Shown here one piece after another: positions 10,503 through 58,811 of a stretch of 64,000 bases of DNA; position 1 is the first letter of the stretch, and each line of letters opens with the position of its first letter. This DNA is from an uncultured bacterium (lineage in GTDB: Bacteria; Patescibacteriota; Minisyncoccia; Phycocordibacterales; CAIRYW01). The stretch is from contig CAVYBO010000001.1 of NCBI GenBank assembly GCA_963766885.1, forward strand, positions 4,352 through 68,351, written 5' to 3'. Position numbers and translations under genes: made by a program. Under the pieces are notes generated by a model. The model had not been told where the DNA came from and ran no database searches. It saw only the letters and a program-made list of their open reading frames with translations.

Positions 10503-10574
10503 GCTCCCATCGTTCAATGGATAGGACGCATCCTTGCGGAGGATGCGATGTAGGTTCGATTCCTACTGGGAGCA
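10503..10574 (+). tRNA. tRNA-Arg (anticodon GCG)
   Basis: Manual cloverleaf: acceptor gctccca/tgggagc, anticodon arm catcc-ttGCGga-ggatg, T-arm gtagg-ttcgatt-cctac. Confidence 0.65.
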
Positions 10575-10639
10575 AAATTAAGCGAAGCTTTATTTTCCCC
10601 CAAGTAAAGACACTCACGTGTCTTTCGGGTAGGAATCGA

Positions 10640-10710
10640 AGACCTTTTGAGCATATTTTATGAGCTTGCGAAATAAAATATCCAAAAGGTGTACTGATCC
10701 TGTAAGGATC
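10640..10710 (+). ncRNA. Copy A of a conserved structured intergenic element (long hairpin accttttg...caaaaggt, then gtactg plus small hairpin with tgtaa loop)
   Basis: Three copies in the window (10640, 18565, 58238) with compensatory changes in two stems. Confidence 0.45.
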
Positions 10711-10755
10711 GATATTCCTGCTAGGAAGATTGATTTATTTTGATATAATAAACGA

Positions 10756-13846: not shown

Positions 13847-13933
13847 TGGGCGGAGGAGGTGGGACTCGAACCCACAAACGCTTTCGCGTTCCAGTTTTCA
13901 AGACTGGTGGAATAACCGTTATCCGACTCCTCC
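13847..13933 (-). tRNA. tRNA-Ser (anticodon TGA), type II with long variable arm, encoded CCA
   Basis: Reverse complement folds: acceptor ggaggag/ctcctcc, anticodon arm ccagt-ctTGAaa-actgg, T-arm gggttcgagtccc, 3' gcca. Confidence 0.8.
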
Positions 13934-14404
13934 ATTTTTATTTTTCAACCAACTTTTTTCCAAAAAATGTTCTTCGTAATGGCAATTGGGACAGATGAGC
14001 TCCAAGTTTTCAAGAATATTATTGTTCCTGTTCTTGTCTTTGTGGTGAATTTGTAATATCTCAAATTTGGCATAATCGCATCTTTCACATCGCTTACCTC
14101 TATCTTCTAGAAGTCTAAGTTTGAGGGCCCTTTGGGATTTTACTTTATCCTTCGGACTATTGATTTTATACTTTATGCCGTCCCTATGAATATTTGCGCA
14201 ACTTCTACCGCATGTCTTTTTGTTGAATTGAGACAAAATCAATTTACCACAGACTAAACAAGGATGTTCCTTTCTGTTTGATTTGCCATAACAAGTCACG
14301 CTACAAAATATGCGACCTTTTTCTATTTCACACGGTCTTCTGTAAATGAGCTTACCACAAACTTGGCAATTTGCATTCGGTTTTCTGGTGTAACTCTCAG
14401 CCAC
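13919..14404 (-). CDS. HNH endonuclease with N-terminal Cys-rich zinc-finger repeats; 3' end overlaps the 5' end of tRNA-Ser
   Basis: HNH motif ...QIHHKDKNRNNNILENLELICPNCH; multiple CxxC pairs. Confidence 0.65.
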   Translation of the reverse strand: MAESYTRKPNANCQVCGKLIYRRPCEIEKGRIFCSVTCYGKSNRKEHPCLVCGKLILSQFNKKTCGRSCANIHRDGIKYKINSPKDKVKSQRALKLRLLEDRGKRCERCDYAKFEILQIHHKDKNRNNNILENLELICPNCHYEEHFLEKSWLKNKNGGVG

Positions 14405-18466: not shown

Positions 18467-18538
18467 GCTTCCGTAGTTCAATGGATAGAACAGAGCTCTT
18501 CTAAGGCTTTGATGTAGGTTCGATTCCTACCGGAAGCA
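18467..18538 (+). tRNA. tRNA-Arg (anticodon TCT)
   Basis: Cloverleaf: acceptor gcttccg/cggaagc, anticodon loop ctTCTaa, T-arm gtagg-ttcgatt-cctac; backbone near-identical to tRNA-Arg(GCG) at 10503. Confidence 0.8.
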
Positions 18539-18564
18539 AAATTAAGCGAAGCTGTATTTTGCGA

Positions 18565-18634
18565 AGACCCTTTGAGCCTAAAATTGAGTTTATGAAAATT
18601 TTAGCCAAAAGGTGTACTGAAACTGTAAGTTTCG
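18565..18634 (+). ncRNA. Copy B of the conserved structured intergenic element
   Basis: accctttg...caaaaggt outer stem, ctaaaatt/aattttag inner stem, gtactg, gaaac-tgtaa-gtttc hairpin. Confidence 0.45.
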
Positions 18635-18746
18635 AATTTTCTACCGGAAACATCTGTTGATGAGATTTTGAGATACAAAAAATTATACTAAATTCCTACT
18701 TTAAGCTAAAATTTAGCTAATAATAACTAAACATTTATATAAATAA

Positions 18747-19358
18747 ATGAGAAAAATTTTACTATCAATAGTTTCTATTCTCCTAATAATTGTAATTGTT
18801 GAGTTTCAATCCTGTAGTTTTATATCAACTTTTTGGTCAAATTTGCTATCGAGCGCTACAATTACGATTCTATTTGGAATCTTCATCGATCAATTTACTG
18901 AACTTACAAAGAAACCTTCATTAAGAATGGTAATAAAACAAGGTAGGTCTTATTCAGATAGAATAGTTCTTACTTGTAGAGAGGATGGAAATTACGAGAC
19001 ATCTTTTAGAATAGCAATCAGAAATGATGGAAATAAAATGCTGAAACCAGCAGAAGGATATTGGCATTTTTACTTACCAAATGCTCAAGACGTTAAACCT
19101 GATGGTGAAGCAGCTAAATTTGTTAGTTCTGATAATGACCATATTCGTAACTGCATTGATTTACCCATTTTTCCGAAATCATTTTTGGATGTAGGACCAG
19201 AATTTAAAATTACTATTCCCAAAGCCGACGTTGAAACATTTAAGGTTTACTATTTTTTTGAGACTAACTACGGTTACTTTCCTAAGACTATATCAATGGA
19301 CCAAAATACAGGTCTTATTGAATTCAATAGAATGACAAAGATTCCTATTAAGTATTAA
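18747..19358 (+). CDS. Membrane-anchored hypothetical protein (first gene of the R-M islet)
   Basis: 203 aa, two N-terminal TM segments. Confidence 0.4.
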   Translation: MRKILLSIVSILLIIVIVEFQSCSFISTFWSNLLSSATITILFGIFIDQFTELTKKPSLRMVIKQGRSYSDRIVLTCREDGNYETSFRIAIRNDGNKMLKPAEGYWHFYLPNAQDVKPDGEAAKFVSSDNDHIRNCIDLPIFPKSFLDVGPEFKITIPKADVETFKVYYFFETNYGYFPKTISMDQNTGLIEFNRMTKIPIKY

Positions 19359-19464
19359 CTAATCAGGAGAAGTATTTCAGCCAATATATAAATTGGTATA
19401 ATGAAAACTGCTTACAATAAGCTCCCTCGCTTTTTTCTGACCTAAAAAATGATAAAATAATATT

Positions 19465-21039
19465 ATGCCTTTAGTATCAATCCCAGAAGCATCTAAATGG
19501 GCAACTGATTATCTTGCCAAAGAAGTGTCGCCAACAAACATTTCTTATCTTGTTCAATATGGCAAGGTTAAAAAGCATGGTGAAAATGGTTCAACTCTTG
19601 TTGATTTGGGTGATCTAAAAAAATATTATGAATCGTATAATGGAAAGCGTGAAATAAGCTGGAAAAAAAATCTTGGTGATGATTTAAACTGGACATTATC
19701 TTTTGATAATCTTCGGGAAAAAGATACAACGAAACATGTTCATAGGCTCCATCCTTACAAAGGAAAATATATTCCTCAACTTGTTGAATATTTTATAGAT
19801 AAACACATTGACGATTTTAAAAAAGAAAAATATTTTAATCCTGGAGACATTATCCTTGATCCATTTTTAGGTTCTGGAACAACAATCATTCAATCACTAG
19901 AAACCGGTCTTCATGCAATTGGTGTTGATGTTTCAGAATTTAATTGCATGATTTCTAGTTGTAAGGCATCGGTTTATGACAATAAATATTTAGAAAATAC
20001 AATCAAGAAAATGCTATTTTCACTTGATACATTCGAGCAGGACAACAAAATTGAAGATTTTGAAAATGAGCTTTTAGCAGAGCTAGCAAAATTTAATGGA
20101 GTACATTTTCCTGGTTATGATTTTAAATACAAAGTTAATCAAGGAAACTTCAATGAAAATAAATTTGCAGTAGAAAAAGAAAAAGAATTTTTACCCGTAT
20201 ATAAAAAATTACTTAAAAAATATTCAATTAAACTGAAACAAGAAAAATCTAATTCTTTTTTAGATATCTGGTTTATGGATAATGTTCGTAAGGAGATAGA
20301 CTATGTATTTGAATCTATTAAGCAAGAAAAAGATGTCAAAACTAGAAAAATCCTTGCTCTTATTTTAAGTCGAACAATTAGATCGTGTCGTGCAACAACT
20401 CATAGCGATTTAGCCACACTAAAAGAACCACAACTTACAACTTATTATTGCTATAAACATAAAAAAATTTGTAAACCTCTTTTTTCAATAAAAACAATGC
20501 TGAATCGTTATGCGTTTGATACTTTAAATCGTATTAAAGAATTTAATAGCTTACGTAAGCCAGTACACTACTCTGTTCTAACTGGAGACTCGAGAACAGT
20601 AAACATCTTTGATAAAATAGAAAAGCAAAATCCAGAATTATCTAAAATTCTTAAGAAGCAAAAAATCGCGGGCATTTTCTGCTCTCCTCCATATGTTGGA
20701 CAGATTGATTATCACGAACAGCACGCTTATGCTTACGATCTTCTAGGATTCAAGCGAAAGGATGAATTAGAAATAGGTCCTCTATATAAAGGACAAGGAT
20801 TAGAAGCAAGACGATCATATGTTCAAGGAATTGCAGATGTATTAAACAACTGTAAGAATTACCTCAAGGATGATTTTGACGTTTTTCTTGTTGCAAATGA
20901 TAAATATAATCTTTATCCAGAAATTGCAGAAAAGTCTGGAATGAAAATTGTAAATAAATTCAAGCGGCCAGTGTTGAATAGAACGGAAAGAGATCGAAAT
21001 CCTTATTCAGAAATAATTTTTCATTTCAAATCAAAATAA
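19465..21039 (+). CDS. DNA methyltransferase (N6-adenine or N4-cytosine family)
   Basis: Motif I ILDPFLGSGTT and motif IV CSPPYVGQIDY separated by a putative TRD. Confidence 0.8.
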   Translation: MPLVSIPEASKWATDYLAKEVSPTNISYLVQYGKVKKHGENGSTLVDLGDLKKYYESYNGKREISWKKNLGDDLNWTLSFDNLREKDTTKHVHRLHPYKGKYIPQLVEYFIDKHIDDFKKEKYFNPGDIILDPFLGSGTTIIQSLETGLHAIGVDVSEFNCMISSCKASVYDNKYLENTIKKMLFSLDTFEQDNKIEDFENELLAELAKFNGVHFPGYDFKYKVNQGNFNENKFAVEKEKEFLPVYKKLLKKYSIKLKQEKSNSFLDIWFMDNVRKEIDYVFESIKQEKDVKTRKILALILSRTIRSCRATTHSDLATLKEPQLTTYYCYKHKKICKPLFSIKTMLNRYAFDTLNRIKEFNSLRKPVHYSVLTGDSRTVNIFDKIEKQNPELSKILKKQKIAGIFCSPPYVGQIDYHEQHAYAYDLLGFKRKDELEIGPLYKGQGLEARRSYVQGIADVLNNCKNYLKDDFDVFLVANDKYNLYPEIAEKSGMKIVNKFKRPVLNRTERDRNPYSEIIFHFKSK

Positions 21040-21042
21040 TTT

Positions 21043-21822
21043 ATGGCTTTATCTAAAGAACAAACAAAAAGTGTAGAAGAAGTTTTGAAGGCAAGTTTGC
21101 GTAATAAGTTTCAAAACTATAAACCTGAACCAGCATCAATGCCTTTTCATACTCGTTTGCTTGGCAAAGACAGACTTGCTTTGTATTCTTTTATCCATTC
21201 ATTAAATACAAATTTTGGTACAAGTATATTTGAGCCAGTTGGCTTAGCGTTAGCACAAAAGAATTTTAAAATGGCAGCTTCACAAGCTACAGCTGGAGAT
21301 CAAATTAGTACAGAGGCACAGGTTGAAATTCAAAAAATTATTGATGGTCTTATTACCGCGACAAATTCTCCAAGCAAAACAGAAGAAATTGAAAGGATAC
21401 GCAAAGTTTGTCAAACGGGTGAAATGATTAAGGTTAAGCCGACAAAAGTTGATTTGATGTTTGAATCAAAGGACGGCGCATATTTTTTATTTGATATCAA
21501 AACAGCAAAACCAAATGCTGGCGGCTTTAAAGAATTTAAGCGCACACTTCTTGAATGGGTTGCTGTCGTTTTGGCAAATAAACCAGATGCGAAAATAAAT
21601 ACTTTTATTGCAATTCCTTATAATCCTTATGAGCCAGAACCATATACTCGTTGGACAATGCGAGGAATGCTTGATCTGGAAAATGAACTTAAAGTCGCAG
21701 ATGAGTTTTGGGATTTTCTTGGTGGTAAAAATACTTATAAAGATTTACTCGACTGTTTTGAAAGAGTTGGTATTGAGTTGAGAGATGAAATTGATACTTA
21801 CTTTAAGCGCTTCAATAAATAA
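21043..21822 (+). CDS. Putative cognate type II restriction endonuclease (by position only)
   Basis: 259-aa ORF 4 nt downstream of the MTase; no motif I can name confidently. Confidence 0.35.
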   Translation: MALSKEQTKSVEEVLKASLRNKFQNYKPEPASMPFHTRLLGKDRLALYSFIHSLNTNFGTSIFEPVGLALAQKNFKMAASQATAGDQISTEAQVEIQKIIDGLITATNSPSKTEEIERIRKVCQTGEMIKVKPTKVDLMFESKDGAYFLFDIKTAKPNAGGFKEFKRTLLEWVAVVLANKPDAKINTFIAIPYNPYEPEPYTRWTMRGMLDLENELKVADEFWDFLGGKNTYKDLLDCFERVGIELRDEIDTYFKRFNK

Positions 21823-57802: not shown

Positions 57803-58225
57803 ATGGCAAAAAAAATAACAAAACAATTAAAACTGATGATTCCTGGAGGCAAAGCCGTGCCTGGACAGCAGCTTGGTCCTGCGCTAGGAAGTGCTGGAAT
57901 CAACATCGGAGAATTCGTAAAAAGATTTAACGACGAAACCAAAACTCGCGTAGGAGAGACTGTACCGACAATCGTAAATGTTTTTGAAGATAGAACTTAC
58001 GCCATGGTCTACAAGACAGAGCCTGCAAGCCAGATGGTCATCAAAGCAATCGGCATTGAAAAAGGCTCTGGAGAAAATACAAAGAAGAAAGTCGGTAAAA
58101 TTTCCAAATTAAAGATCAAAGAAATCGCAGAAAAGAAAATGGTAGACCTGAATGCAAAAGACCTAGCTGGCGCAATAAAGATTATTGAAGGAACTTGTAG
58201 GAGTATGGGCGTCGAAGTGATATAG
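57803..58225 (+). CDS. rplK: 50S ribosomal protein L11
   Basis: L11 N-terminal PGGKA.PGQQLGPALG plus C-terminal domain; 140 aa. Confidence 0.9.
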   Translation: MAKKITKQLKLMIPGGKAVPGQQLGPALGSAGINIGEFVKRFNDETKTRVGETVPTIVNVFEDRTYAMVYKTEPASQMVIKAIGIEKGSGENTKKKVGKISKLKIKEIAEKKMVDLNAKDLAGAIKIIEGTCRSMGVEVI

Positions 58226-58237
58226 ATCACTTTGGCG

Positions 58238-58307
58238 GACCTTTTGAGATATTTTGGAGAACTTTGTTCGAACAAAATATCCAAAAGGTGTACTGCTCCT
58301 GTAAGGA
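58238..58307 (+). ncRNA. Copy C of the conserved structured intergenic element, in the slot where rplA would be expected
   Basis: accttttg/caaaaggt outer stem, atatttt/aaaatat inner stem, gtactg, ctcc-tgtaa-ggag hairpin. Confidence 0.45.
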
Positions 58308-58340
58308 GTTGAGGTGGTAGCGTAAATAAAAAATTGAAAT

Positions 58341-58369
58341 TAAGCCGCGCCCTTCGGGCGCGGCTTTTT
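58341..58369 (+). terminator. Strong rho-independent terminator
   Basis: aagccgcgcccttcgggcgcggctttttt. Confidence 0.75.
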
Positions 58370-58421
58370 TGTTTGACAATTTTTATTTTACAGAATAACC
58401 TGTAAACAAGGAGAATGAATA

Positions 58422-58811
58422 ATGAACATTAAAGATGTCCTTTTAAAACAGGCTCAACCGTCAGATTCTGAAGTCGTTTCCAAAGCTTTGGAACATCATC
58501 CTCAACTCAAAGGCCACAAGGTCTTTTTGCAACTGGAAGACCTCCGGAAGTTTTTGGACACTCACAACCAAAACAAGCATTCGTGGAAGACTCTCGATGA
58601 GCTTGCCGAAAAGGCAAAGGGTCTTTGGCGTCTGATAAGCGTTTGGTCCAAGCAAGGTCCTCCCGAAAACGAAATGAGATTTTGGTCAGTTCGTGAGGAA
58701 GAGGACTCCCCATCCAACGATTGGTGGGGGAGTTACCATCTCTACTTTTGTCTCGCGATTTCTATGGACGAAGACGTCGAGATATTCAAAGTGAAGGTTG
58801 AAGAGTTCTAA
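58422..58811 (+). CDS. Hypothetical protein (GC higher than surroundings)
   Basis: 129-aa ORF. Confidence 0.3.
   Translation: MNIKDVLLKQAQPSDSEVVSKALEHHPQLKGHKVFLQLEDLRKFLDTHNQNKHSWKTLDELAEKAKGLWRLISVWSKQGPPENEMRFWSVREEEDSPSNDWWGSYHLYFCLAISMDEDVEIFKVKVEEF

Follow-up and report, generated by a model that had tools for sequence, protein, structure and literature searches.

A number of described systems invite comparison with the small element that we report here from CPR bacteria. One example is presented by the tRNA-targeting integrative elements that rely on tyrosine integrases. In these, a repeat of the tRNA 3' end brackets the insert and starts in the T-loop, a classic crossover position for tRNA-targeting integrases, the tRNA is regenerated, and the ends of other conserved genes also serve as targets, all features with counterparts in the CPR element. 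Unlike them, the CPR element has no integrase or ORF, carries an antisense copy of its target along with a three-way-junction module (M), occurs in tandem arrays of 139-nt units, and is not found on phage contigs. Another example is the attC site of integrons and the attP(+) site of CTXphi (XerCD), with which the element appears to have in common the conservation of stem structure over sequence, a strand-specific orientation, a hairpin that is imperfect, with one extrahelical base conserved and the apex variable, a self-complementary fold that would recreate a duplex partner, and the possibility of tandem integration. The differences are these: the M consensus lacks the GTTRRRY/RYYYAAC core of attC, there are no cassette ORFs and no IntI, M possesses long invariant junction and loop sequences and an extra hairpin (P3), and the duplex arm copies a host gene end, differing from locus to locus.

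Further examples come from smaller repeats and from RNAs. Tandem repeats, each with the 3' terminal ~19 nt of the tRNA, are located downstream of the tyrT tRNA gene of E. coli, and tandem units with a tRNA 3' copy downstream of a tRNA gene are seen here as well; however, the tyrT repeats are confined to one locus and have neither a structured core that is conserved nor an antisense arm, while the CPR family spans many tRNA identities, the ends of protein genes and more than 100 species. The REP/REPIN sequences, MITEs and Rickettsia palindromic elements are likewise small, multi-copy, non-coding and hairpin-forming, residing harmlessly at gene ends or inside genes, but they possess inverted repeats of their own and target duplications of 0-10 bp, whereas the repeats of the CPR element copy the local gene end (15-72 nt), with only the central module in common. 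Finally, as in viral tRNA-like structures, mascRNA, the tRNA-like domain of tmRNA, and YrlA, two predicted helices of tRNA-linked copies of the element (X':X and T5':T3') can stack in a manner resembling the acceptor and T arms, with a side hairpin. Unlike these, the element has no equivalent of the D or anticodon arm, no T-loop (M stands in its place) and no CCA, its helix is copied from the 3' strand of the adjacent tRNA only, and its core also occurs with non-tRNA stems.

The window analyzed here, a stretch of DNA of 64,000 nt, contains three copies of M, all on the + strand, one after each of two tRNA-Arg genes (copy A, GCG; copy B, TCT) and one directly after the rplK stop codon (copy C). 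These stretches are copies of a CPR-wide, multi-copy, protein-less family. Their features are listed in Table 1.

Table 1. Features of the three copies of the element in the 64,000-nt window.
Feature	Position	Strand	Basis or remark
tRNA-Arg(GCG)	10503-10574	+	ARAGORN; Rfam; R1 = 10555-10574
Trailer mini-hairpin s, copy A	10575-10596	+	shared 22-mer
5' arm of copy A: X' + H0 + T5'/R'	10592-10640	+	minimum-free-energy fold
Hairpin H0, copy A	10606-10625	+	
T5'/R' of copy A, GGGTAGGAATCGAA	10627-10640	+	
Core module M, copy A	10637-10713	+	covariance model R1, 87 bits, E 8e-21
R2 of copy A, GATCGATATTCCTGCTAGGAAGAT, degenerate repeat of tRNA-Arg(GCG) 3' end	10707-10730	+	
tRNA-Arg(TCT), no encoded CCA	18467-18538	+	ARAGORN; Rfam tRNA 71 bits
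R1 of locus B = last 20 nt of tRNA-Arg(TCT), T54 to A73	18519-18538	+	
Trailer mini-hairpin s, copy B: AAAUUAAGC-GAA-GCUGUAUUUU	18539-18560	+	22-mer common only to locus A
Core module M, copy B	18562-18636	+	covariance model R1, 72.9 bits, E 4e-17
Stem P1/P2 with bulged A, copy B	18567-18614	+	followed by junction GUGUACUG
Hairpin P3, copy B, loop C-UGUAA-G	18619-18633	+	
R2 of copy B, TTTCGAATTTTCTACCGGAAACA, degenerate direct repeat of tRNA-Arg(TCT) 3' end	18630-18652	+	
Decayed fragment of a further unit: ATTCCTAC then CTTTAAGCTAAAATTT	18688-18716	+	repeats I8, D12; sequence reading
rplK end (GTCGAAGTGATATAG = R1 of copy C), then directly antisense arm X' (ATCACTTTGG)	58211-58235	+	L11 by Pfam
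Core module M, copy C, rplK 3' UTR	58234-58312	+	covariance model R1, 66.1 bits
R2 of copy C, GTTGAGGTGGTAG, degenerate rplK-end repeat including a stop codon	58308-58320	+	

A sequence-only reading of the window had recognized a duplicate of the tRNA-Arg(TCT) 3' end downstream of this gene and an analogous one at tRNA-Arg(GCG), and both are borne out, the second less strongly. At locus B, TTTCGAATTTTCTACCGGAAACA and the tRNA end, TTCGATTCCTACCGGAAGCA, agree at 18 aligned positions, an exact CTACCGGAA included, and differ at 2, with a single gap of 2 nt; the local score of 13 compares with 4.8±1.15 for the null of all 32-nt windows of the 64 kb; a fraction of 7e-4 of these windows score as high or higher, none of 5000 shuffles reach 13, and a separate repeat search recovers the same pair (D11, 13/15). 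The repeat at locus A (10707-10729) scores 9 (fraction 6e-3). Chance resemblance of AT-rich sequence to a tRNA end could be argued from locus A, which by itself is moderately significant (p about 6e-3), but it is contradicted by locus B (p about 7e-4) and by the family as a whole. When the tRNA-specific last 15 nt were compared with the 45 nt after the element at 44 loci, the own-locus score was 10.3 versus a cross-locus score of 4.8±1.4, with 28 of the 44 loci above the 99th percentile and 14 matching at all 15 positions. Chance resemblance is refuted. Flanking direct repeats scoring at least 14 are found at 22 of 94 loci versus none of 94 shuffled controls.

The sequence shared by the two loci immediately 3' of the tRNA, also pointed out earlier, is confirmed as a 22-mer, AAATTAAGCGAAGCTKTATTTT, that occurs exactly twice in the window (expected 0.01), each time directly 3' of a tRNA-Arg. 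It forms the mini-hairpin s (UUAAGC-GAA-GCUUUA plus UUUU), which falls below the calling level of the terminator scan; the same position holds A-run/hairpin/T-run terminators in other genomes, and a canonical terminator follows the tRNA-Lys of the window. As to the extra 40-nt insert ascribed to copy A, its gacac-tcac-gtgtc hairpin is indeed present (10606-10625), but the insert itself is the standard arm of the family, which has been deleted from copy B: the alignment (A5) reveals a block of ~50 columns, corresponding to the X'-H0-T5' arm, that is found in copy A and in loci L011, L080 and L129 and is missing from copy B. Copy B is old and 5'-deleted, and copy A is old and complete. The fold of copy A comprises an outer stem, H0, P0, P1/P2 and P3 (z = -4.1), with X' (AUUUUCC, 10592-10598) predicted to pair with GGAAGAU at 10724-10730 and with R2 doubling as the 3' strand of the closing stems. 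Its GTAGGAATCGAA (10629-10640) is the exact antisense of TTCGATTCCTAC of tRNA-Arg(GCG), within a reverse-strand match to the tRNA end at 10621-10640. In copy B, the start of R2 overlaps the 3' strand of P3, and the decayed fragment farther downstream consists of a segment resembling the tRNA T-stem (ATTCCTAC) followed by one resembling the 5' strand of P1/P2 (CTTTAAGCTAAAATTT). No plausible ORF is present in the bracketed DNA of either copy (91 nt in B, 132 nt in A).

The same reading interpreted these repeats as an attL/attR signature, left by either a tiny element or the remnant of a larger island. A direct repeat starting at T54 does bracket the insert, but the signature does not explain the antisense arm, there is no integrase, and of the two origins the tiny element fits far better. 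According to the other, an island or a prophage bearing an integrase once resided in tRNA-Arg and was deleted to ~130 nt, the R-M islet being its leftover. The start of the repeat in the T-loop would be as expected, and the islet, located just beyond copy B as previously described and encoding an N6_N4 methylase and the TdeIII endonuclease, does vary between strains, Vsr plus Dcm methylases being encoded in its place on a contig with an identical 106-aa ORF. However, the islet lies outside the tRNA-Arg(TCT) repeat pair, with no third tRNA-end repeat bounding its far side, no integrase is present, the antisense arm remains unaccounted for, and the ~75-nt core, together with the size of the element, is seen again in many genomes, at more than 50 tRNA loci as well as at the ends of protein genes. 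Moreover, the motif is essentially absent from viral contigs: among the 2.9 million in IMG/VR there is a single match, inside a coding sequence and without the P1 partner, which we consider a chance match, rejecting a phage origin. A conventional island scar is highly improbable and close to refuted.

The organization of the family is best seen across loci. In the chromosomal order, the gene end (R1) is followed by s, R', M and R2, the unit being [s-R'-M-R] and the element overall measuring ~100-250 nt. R duplicates the final ~15-45 nt of the gene next to it, at tRNAs spanning T54 in the T-loop to the discriminator and sometimes continuing through the terminator; s is the trailer or terminator hairpin that belongs to the gene; R' is the Watson-Crick antisense of R, often split by the small conserved hairpin H0, and it pairs with the repeat, closing a conserved three-way junction. 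The flanking inverted and direct repeats are thus locus-specific copies of host gene ends, 15-72 nt in length, with exact examples of 35 nt at the ftsZ end and of 41 nt at a tRNA-Val gene plus its terminator, while in many loci R2 has decayed. Other tRNA genes, at which the earlier reading advised looking for the same element, do harbor it: in many CPR genomes this arrangement of ~100-150 nt follows tRNAs, of no fewer than 14 identities, with 60 of the 61 tRNA-adjacent copies on the tRNA's own strand. The element is, on the other hand, not specific to tRNAs, as non-tRNA targets include the rplK stop codon (copy C and three other genomes), the ftsZ end and the 5' end of a kinase gene, where the two repeat copies differ at 7 sites, all 7 of them synonymous third positions.

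The origin of the antisense arm can be specified further. At all 20 informative positions R' is the complement of the acceptor 3' strand of the tRNA and never of the 5' strand, and a disrupted duplicate of a whole tRNA gene is rejected on these grounds, X' being the 3'-strand complement at G·U and mismatch positions by 20:0. Copy A had at first suggested that R' coevolves with R2, an idea rejected by the diverged loci (n = 32), in 30 of which, even with R2 decayed, R' is still complementary to the real tRNA end, R1, versus 1 of the 32. A primer-binding site for mature tRNA does not fit either, as R' complements the genomic trailer and not CCA.

The core, M, is ~75 nt long and forms a conserved three-way junction in which covariation is strong. 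Stems P1 and P3 covary, P3 being 99.5% paired with four pair types, and P1/P2 combines a covarying stem with a bulged A and a variable apex; compensatory evolution is seen in P1, P2 and P3, while the junction and loop bases are conserved, UACUG and UGUAA being invariant. The covariation score is 0.452 versus 0.133 in shuffles (none of 500 reach the observed value), and shifting the partners by 1-3 columns lowers it. RNA and single-stranded DNA folds are computationally indistinguishable (PMC5737381), and the ratio of G·U to A·C counts, 66:40, is a weak pointer to the folding strand that does not separate the two. A peptide-coding role (frame KVYCxCK) is disfavored by the stem covariation and the variable length of P2, and no ORF is found inside the unit.

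A scan with an 18-base motif of M detected it in at least 120 genome stretches, and among the matches listed every title is that of a CPR taxon, a Patescibacteria-group MAG or an unclassified MAG; additional, diverged copies are located in the same loci. Many of the matches are from Saccharibacteria, for which a genetic system is available (PMC10633639). Within the CPR, lineages as far apart as Saccharibacteria and Parcubacteria have M in conserved form, and some CPR genomes carry about one copy per 3-20 kb. There are 5 copies in 8 kb at L049, 5 in 13 kb at L129 and 3 in the 64 kb of the window. Rfam 15, with its tRNA, tmRNA, RNase P, T-box and small-ribozyme models, contains nothing that matches M in the whole window, in both tRNA loci to E = 10, or in 18 loci with a larger form of the element, one of them in detail: gathering scores are reached only by true tRNAs and one tmRNA, and below gathering, to E = 10, the tRNA itself has a Plastid-ycf2 match on its reverse strand, and the other matches are weak and at the level of chance, with a best E of 0.9. 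No cloverleaf with D, anticodon and T arms is detected in the elements by ARAGORN or by the Rfam tRNA model. A full-text search of the literature, sequence strings included, returned no description of the M family, which is apparently undescribed. The larger form (GGGUGAG-hairpin-GCAAGACC...AAGGU...GUACUGAACC) is, as we take it, reminiscent of E. coli M1 RNA, but RNase P RNA is rejected, as no RNase P model matches and the element is multi-copy. A self-splicing mini-intron (GUGAG...AG with a bulged A) was also considered; the duplication of the gene end makes splicing needless, and the geometry of group II introns does not fit.

Could the element serve the host as an RNA? In copy C, the rplK stop codon lies within the loop of the R1:X' hairpin, R2 forms the 3' strand of the closing stem, and a terminator follows at 58342-58366 (terminator scan), placing copy C inside the rplK transcript, so that at least this copy is made as RNA; the same layout recurs in loci L024, L052 and L087. 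The element would then act within a tRNA trailer or an mRNA 3' UTR, the stacked X':X and T5':T3' helices mimicking the acceptor and T arms and M replacing the T-loop, with putative roles as a processing signal ('punctuation') for RNase P or RNase Z, a 3'-end stabilizer, or a decoy or platform for a tRNA-binding factor, and with repeats arising by local duplication and kept by selection or gene conversion. Such an acceptor/T-arm minihelix is predicted for copy A and many tRNA-linked copies; it is absent from copy B. This is a serious rival explanation, possible in our view if doubtful. Consistent with it, copy A folds exactly so, copy C is stem-closed (z = -5.1) and has the rplK stop codon before it and a strong terminator behind it, the stems show compensatory changes with conserved junction and loop bases, and the co-orientation with the neighboring gene is strict. 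The loops of H0 (CUGGGAG) and P3 (CUGUAAG) share a CUG..AG form, and both presumably fit the UGNRA T-loop pattern. Also in its favor, distant lineages carry the element at the same sites (at rplK in 4 genomes, and at tRNA-Arg, Val, Tyr and Ser in several genomes each), the junction and loop bases of M being kept per locus at shared sites such as rplK and tRNA-Arg. Such conservation has the look of purifying selection acting on every copy over long periods, and this favors host function.

Against a host RNA, many units, including each unit of the tandem arrays, lie downstream of a good A-run/hairpin/T-run terminator, which makes the transcription of those copies doubtful. The element is missing from most tRNAs (from 5 of the 7 that the window contains) and from orthologous tRNA-Arg loci; an RNA fold needs neither exact repeats of 35-72 nt, nor near-complete tRNA copies, nor tandem arrays; R' follows R1 and not its supposed partner R2 in all but two of the diverged loci; and neither ARAGORN nor Rfam detects a tRNA-like gene in the element.

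The arrays, which in one genome include two identical 139-nt units [s-R'-M-R], contain no ORFs. In a further explanation, the unit [R-s-R'-M] stands in the genome for a circular molecule shaped like a rod, either a catalytic or rolling-circle RNA or a single-stranded DNA, its R:R' helix capped by s at one end and M at the other. In this case M would be a putative small ribozyme that cleaves itself or ligates, or an origin of replication or recombination, and the arrays would be integrated multimers. Identical head-to-tail units are in line with this proposal, a closed-rod fold is possible for every unit, R-s-R'-M-R is a circular permutation of one unit with one extra R, and invariant junction and loop nucleotides such as those of M are typical of small ribozymes, no known family being matched. 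However, the hammerhead, twister, pistol, hatchet and HDV models show no similarity to the elements even at E = 10, and most loci contain a single unit. Both the circular origin and the rod with its integrated multimers appear quite unlikely.

The empty sites that the sequence-only reading advised looking for do exist, 8 of the 9 metagenome contigs with an identical 28-nt tRNA-Arg end being empty and the remaining one filled, with an exact repeat, but these contigs represent different species, not strains or alleles of one; a protein-based metagenome scan found no filled and empty alleles of the same species. The element shows no link to a recombinase, a transposase or a reverse transcriptase, nor is there a recurrent neighboring protein. 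Against integration also stands the age of the three copies in the window, which are old, at ~20-25% divergence, and show compensatory changes.

Overall, the explanation that we place first, and to which we give an even chance, is a small non-autonomous element that integrates and duplicates at gene ends, its mobility being deduced from the locus-specific repeats, the empty sites, the arrays and the target copies carried by the element at the kinase 5' end. Such an element might enter by recombination at R, leaving R on both sides as attL and attR do, so that the host gene end would be regenerated and the insertion harmless; the recombinase would presumably act in trans. With R', a single strand may fold so as to recreate the target as a duplex with M as its cap, much as the attC and CTXphi sites fold, a mechanism that we infer from the architecture. 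In transcripts, the pairing of R' with R2 may also leave the real gene end free of the antisense arm. Tandem multiplication could follow from unequal recombination between copies of R. A bolder proposal, which we regard as unlikely, is that of a protein-less, self-targeting single-stranded rod of ~140 nt, in which R' would act as the guide selecting a conserved gene end and M would be catalytic or would recruit a recombinase, which would make this site-specific integrating or rolling-circle element the smallest known, with CPR bacteria as its only hosts.

The M motif is a specific marker for the CPR lineages that carry the element, and the covariance model from the present analysis is directly usable for genome annotation. 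The element also misleads annotation, as it gives rise to pseudo-tRNA ends and to duplicate starts of genes. The CPR bacteria make up a large share of bacterial diversity, with tiny genomes and little non-coding DNA, and yet some of them carry M in multiple copies. If the element is mobile, then DNA without a protein gene enters essential genes (tRNAs, rplK, ftsZ) harmlessly, by means of direct and antisense copies of the target, and this would represent a new principle of target choice. Should the element instead be a host RNA, it would represent a new and widespread class of acceptor/T-arm mimics on the 3' ends of tRNAs and mRNAs, in organisms whose RNA processing is almost unstudied.

Downstream of tRNA-Arg(TCT), the order is a 22-mer (AAATTAAGCGAAGCTGTATTTT), a structured stretch (copy B) and then TTTCGAATTTTCTACCGGAAACA, which aligns to the end of this tRNA with a local score of 13. 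The null, taken over every 32-nt window in the 64 kb, is 4.8±1.15, and 13 is reached by a fraction 7e-4 of these windows and by 0/5000 shuffles. The counterpart after tRNA-Arg(GCG), behind copy A, scores 9 (fraction 6e-3). The 22-mer occurs only twice in the window, after both tRNA-Arg genes, with 0.01 expected. As the scores beat the null and the 22-mer is unique to the two loci, the degenerate repeat of the tRNA 3' end, and the sequence common to both loci, that the sequence-only reading had described are confirmed, and chance resemblance, of the level given by random AT-rich sequence, is excluded. That reading had also taken a 40-nt block of copy A for an extra insert. We aligned five loci, the two of the window, L080 and L129 (tRNA-Arg(TCT)) and L011 (tRNA-Arg(GCG)), the L-handles denoting stretches from other genomes or contigs; the block (X'-H0-T5', ~50 columns) is present in four of the five and missing from copy B, so that copy A represents the norm and copy B a deleted form. 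The anticodon GCG, found in tRNA-Arg of the window and of the CPR stretches L011, L100, L107, L127, and L128, instead of the usual bacterial ACG, which is read as inosine, may be tied to loss of the TadA deaminase.

Coordinates of the features in the window and in stretches from other genomes
Feature	Position	Strand	Remarks
tRNA-Arg(GCG)	10503-10574		ARAGORN + Rfam; no encoded CCA
GCGAAGC, locus A	10582-10588		within the s hairpin
T-loop/T-stem complement, copy A	10629-10640		GTAGGAATCGAA
tRNA-end repeat, locus A	10707-10729
161-aa ORF	13847-14404	-	Cys-rich + HNH-like motifs (CPNCHYEEH)
tRNA-Arg(TCT)	18467-18538		ARAGORN + Rfam; no encoded CCA
GCGAAGC, locus B	18546-18552		within the s hairpin
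tRNA-end repeat, locus B	18630-18652		TTTCGAATTTTCTACCGGAAACA
Fragment of a further unit	18688-18716		downstream of copy B
R-M islet	18747-21822		203-aa ORF, N6_N4 methylase, TdeIII endonuclease
rplK region	57803-58811		rplK, element, terminator, unrelated 129-aa ORF; no rplA next
Copy C	58234-58312	+	abuts rplK stop codon
Strong terminator	58342-58366		after copy C
Larger form	L042:3950-4175
Second tRNA-Leu(CAA) copy	L048:2620-2915		72 nt, 2 mismatches
Kinase locus	L089:7330-7560
Kinase locus	L016, ~2680-2900	-
Tandem duplication	L130:237-460		after tRNA-Arg(TCT)

Aligned with each other, as had been proposed, the two tRNA-Arg loci share a core, GACCYTTTGAG...CCAAAAGGTGTACTG-NNN-CTGTAAG-NNN, and motif search located a third copy (C), with no tRNA nearby. 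All three window copies fold into a three-way junction (module M, ~75 nt; fold z-score -4.1 in copy A, -5.1 in copy C), to which no family of Rfam 15 corresponds, even at E = 10. The junction is closed by stem P0; its long hairpin, P1/P2, has a bulged A and an apex that varies, and its short hairpin, P3, has the loop C-UGUAA-G. Stem covariation is strong in an alignment of 79 sequences: pairing in P3 is 99.5%, with four types of pair seen at three positions, covariation scores 0.452 versus 0.133 in shuffles (0/500 reach 0.452), and every slid register scores lower. The invariance of the 18 scanned bases is a product of how the copies were found; diverged copies in the same loci, with GGGAUACUG, GUACCG, or AUGUAAU, recovered by a covariance model (also named R1), show which bases vary. 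Over the window, this model detects copies A, B, and C only, all on the + strand. The ratio of G·U to A·C in family stems, 66:40, does not separate an RNA from a single-stranded DNA fold, which computation cannot tell apart (PMC5737381).

A scan of one genome per prokaryotic species with the motif AAGGTGTACTGNNNCTGTAAG gave at least 120 genome stretches. By their titles, the matches listed are all CPR taxa, Patescibacteria-group MAGs or unclassified MAGs; Parcubacteria/Paceibacterota, Saccharibacteria, Nomura-, Kaiser-, Zambryski-, and Taylorbacteria are among the groups named, and within this listing the exact motif is confined to CPR genomes. The same motif matched once in 2.9 million viral contigs, a match attributed to chance because it lies within a coding region and has no P1 partner.

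The tRNAs linked to the element are of 14 identities (Val, Ser, Arg, Tyr, Gln, Leu, Glu, Lys, Ala, Cys, Ile, Asp, Trp, and Thr). The element is co-oriented with its neighbouring gene: 52 of the 126 exact-motif copies lie 70-260 nt downstream of a same-strand tRNA, eight lie upstream of one, and one lies beside an opposite-strand tRNA. At tRNA loci, P3 is followed by a repeat, often exact, of the 3' part of the upstream tRNA, starting at T54 in the T-loop and reaching the discriminator; at times it extends through the terminator (41 nt in L082). For the last 15 nt, which are tRNA-specific, the own-locus score is 10.3 versus 4.8±1.4 cross-locus, above the 99th percentile in 28/44 loci, with a perfect match in 14. 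Protein-coding genes are targeted as well. Four genomes, the window included, have the element directly against the stop codon of rplK, with the final codons and a stop codon repeated behind it; in L056, 35 nt from the end of ftsZ are repeated exactly on its flanks; and 11 of the 74 copies without a tRNA link start ≤32 nt from a same-strand stop codon. In L089 and L016, the element lies within a gene for a P-loop kinase, at its 5' end, and the first ~30-45 nt of the gene are present twice. The two repeat copies differ at seven sites, each of them a synonymous third position, which fits an element carrying its own target copy from another lineage. The place of insertion in the P-loop-coding 5' end is the same in these two genomes, and the truncated upstream kinase copy keeps the frame open through the element, ending at or beside the real start codon; translational coupling is possible. 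In L048, a near-complete second tRNA-Leu(CAA) stands upstream of the intact gene, with the module interrupting its T-loop and the 3' side rearranged (palindrome TCAAGTCC/GGACTTGA). With rplA not next to rplK in the window, L1 is either encoded elsewhere or absent; its absence is reported for some Parcubacteria.

The direct repeat (R2) has an inverted counterpart (R'). In tRNA-linked copies, M is preceded by a stretch complementary to the 3' strand of T-loop and T-stem and, further 5', by X', the complement of the acceptor 3' strand, with a small hairpin H0 (conserved loop CUGGGAG or ACUGCU) usually separating the two. Across 18 loci, at acceptor positions with a G·U or a mismatch, X' is the Watson-Crick complement of the 3' strand 20:0 and never carries the tRNA 5'-strand base, so that the unit is built from the gene 3' end alone, in one inverted and one direct copy; a duplicated tRNA gene as its source is ruled out by the same count. 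With R2 decayed, the antisense arm keeps its fit to the real tRNA end in 30 of 32 diverged loci, the opposite case being seen once. Duplex energies in L063 are -40.7 and -16.8 kcal/mol. The element is a conserved, covarying, protein-less module; the stems around it are locus-specific and consist of the end of the neighbouring gene, copied once in inverted and once in direct orientation.

The general order is gene...R1 – s – R' – M – R2, in which R1 is the gene end and s its trailer/terminator hairpin, in the window a mini-hairpin within the common 22-mer; at the element-free tRNA-Lys of the window, an ordinary terminator occupies this position. The s hairpin of both window loci contains GCGAAGC, a heptamer that forms an exceptionally stable DNA mini-hairpin and that is found again at the apex of P2 in many members of the family. 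L034 has its core reversed with respect to the tRNA, with the order R1-s-R'-core-R2 unchanged. Both arrays and empty sites exist. In L049, one tRNA is followed by four tandem units, of which three are complete (s – R' – M – R) and finish with 23 nt that match the tRNA end exactly; two of the three are identical (139 nt, R' without H0), and the fourth unit continues into masked sequence. When metagenomes were searched for the exact 28-nt tRNA-Arg 3' end, nine contigs were returned, eight of them element-free after the tRNA, also by the covariance model. The site is filled in the ninth, L129, where the unit is complete and its repeat exact, and which has five M copies in 13 kb. Variant forms are found too. 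One, of ~190-260 nt, is represented by L042 and ~35 other loci (e.g., L001, L005, L060, L068, L097), has a fold z-score of -10 and no Rfam match, and is closed by a locus-specific perfect stem of up to ~31 bp around GGAG-hairpin-GGGUGAG-hairpin (loop GAAUACUUGGA or UGGGAC)-CGCAAGACC-M-hairpin (loop UCAGCAG)-CCGUGCUCC. Another has one more small hairpin (AGCGUACUCGCG), placed between UCGAUA and the R2 T-stem 3' strand, making the junction four-way (L029, L033, L035, L054, L061, L065, L066, L079, L090, L095, L096). In L130, the last 12 nt of the tRNA plus terminator are tandemly duplicated (52 nt, duplicates 24 nt apart) with M absent; this may be a unit that has collapsed, or a precursor of one.

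The bracketing repeat and T-loop boundary are shared with tRNA-targeting integrative elements, but the element has no integrase; like MITEs and REPs it is small and multi-copy, but what it repeats are the ends of host genes, not element termini; its hairpin logic recalls attC, but core sites and cassettes are missing; and it resembles a tRNA minihelix, but no tRNA model recognises it. As each of these families has one or more defining features that the element was tested for and lacks, it is filed under none of them. The R-M islet beside copy B is strain-variable, an ERR11571140 Logan contig with an identical 106-aa upstream protein having Vsr and two Dcm-type methylases instead. The 161-aa ORF, which ends within the 5' end of tRNA-Ser(TGA), may be a homing-endonuclease-like gene abutting a tRNA.

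There is about an even chance, in our judgment, that the unit integrates by recombination at R, with R' folding as a single strand, and that arrays arise by unequal recombination. Recombination at R would regenerate the gene end and leave R on both sides, and R' would let one strand, capped by M, fold back into a duplex version of its target, by analogy with integron attC sites and CTXphi attP(+); R':R2 pairing would neutralise the antisense arm in transcripts, and unequal recombination would let arrays grow. No partner enzyme for integration was identified, and the copies are old, distant lineages having retained them in the same places with compensatory changes; both count against integration. 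These points, along with the position of copy C within the rplK transcript, between stop codon and terminator, make a host RNA, either mimicking the acceptor/T-arm helix of a tRNA or acting as a trailer/3'-UTR element, a serious rival, if a less likely one; a ribozyme or rolling-circle reading is improbable. Between the two interpretations first offered, a tiny element in its own right is favoured, extended to non-tRNA targets and the antisense arm, and the remnant of a larger island is not, an island scar being very improbable. No description was found in the literature, sequence strings included, and the feature appears to represent an undescribed, CPR-wide class of elements.
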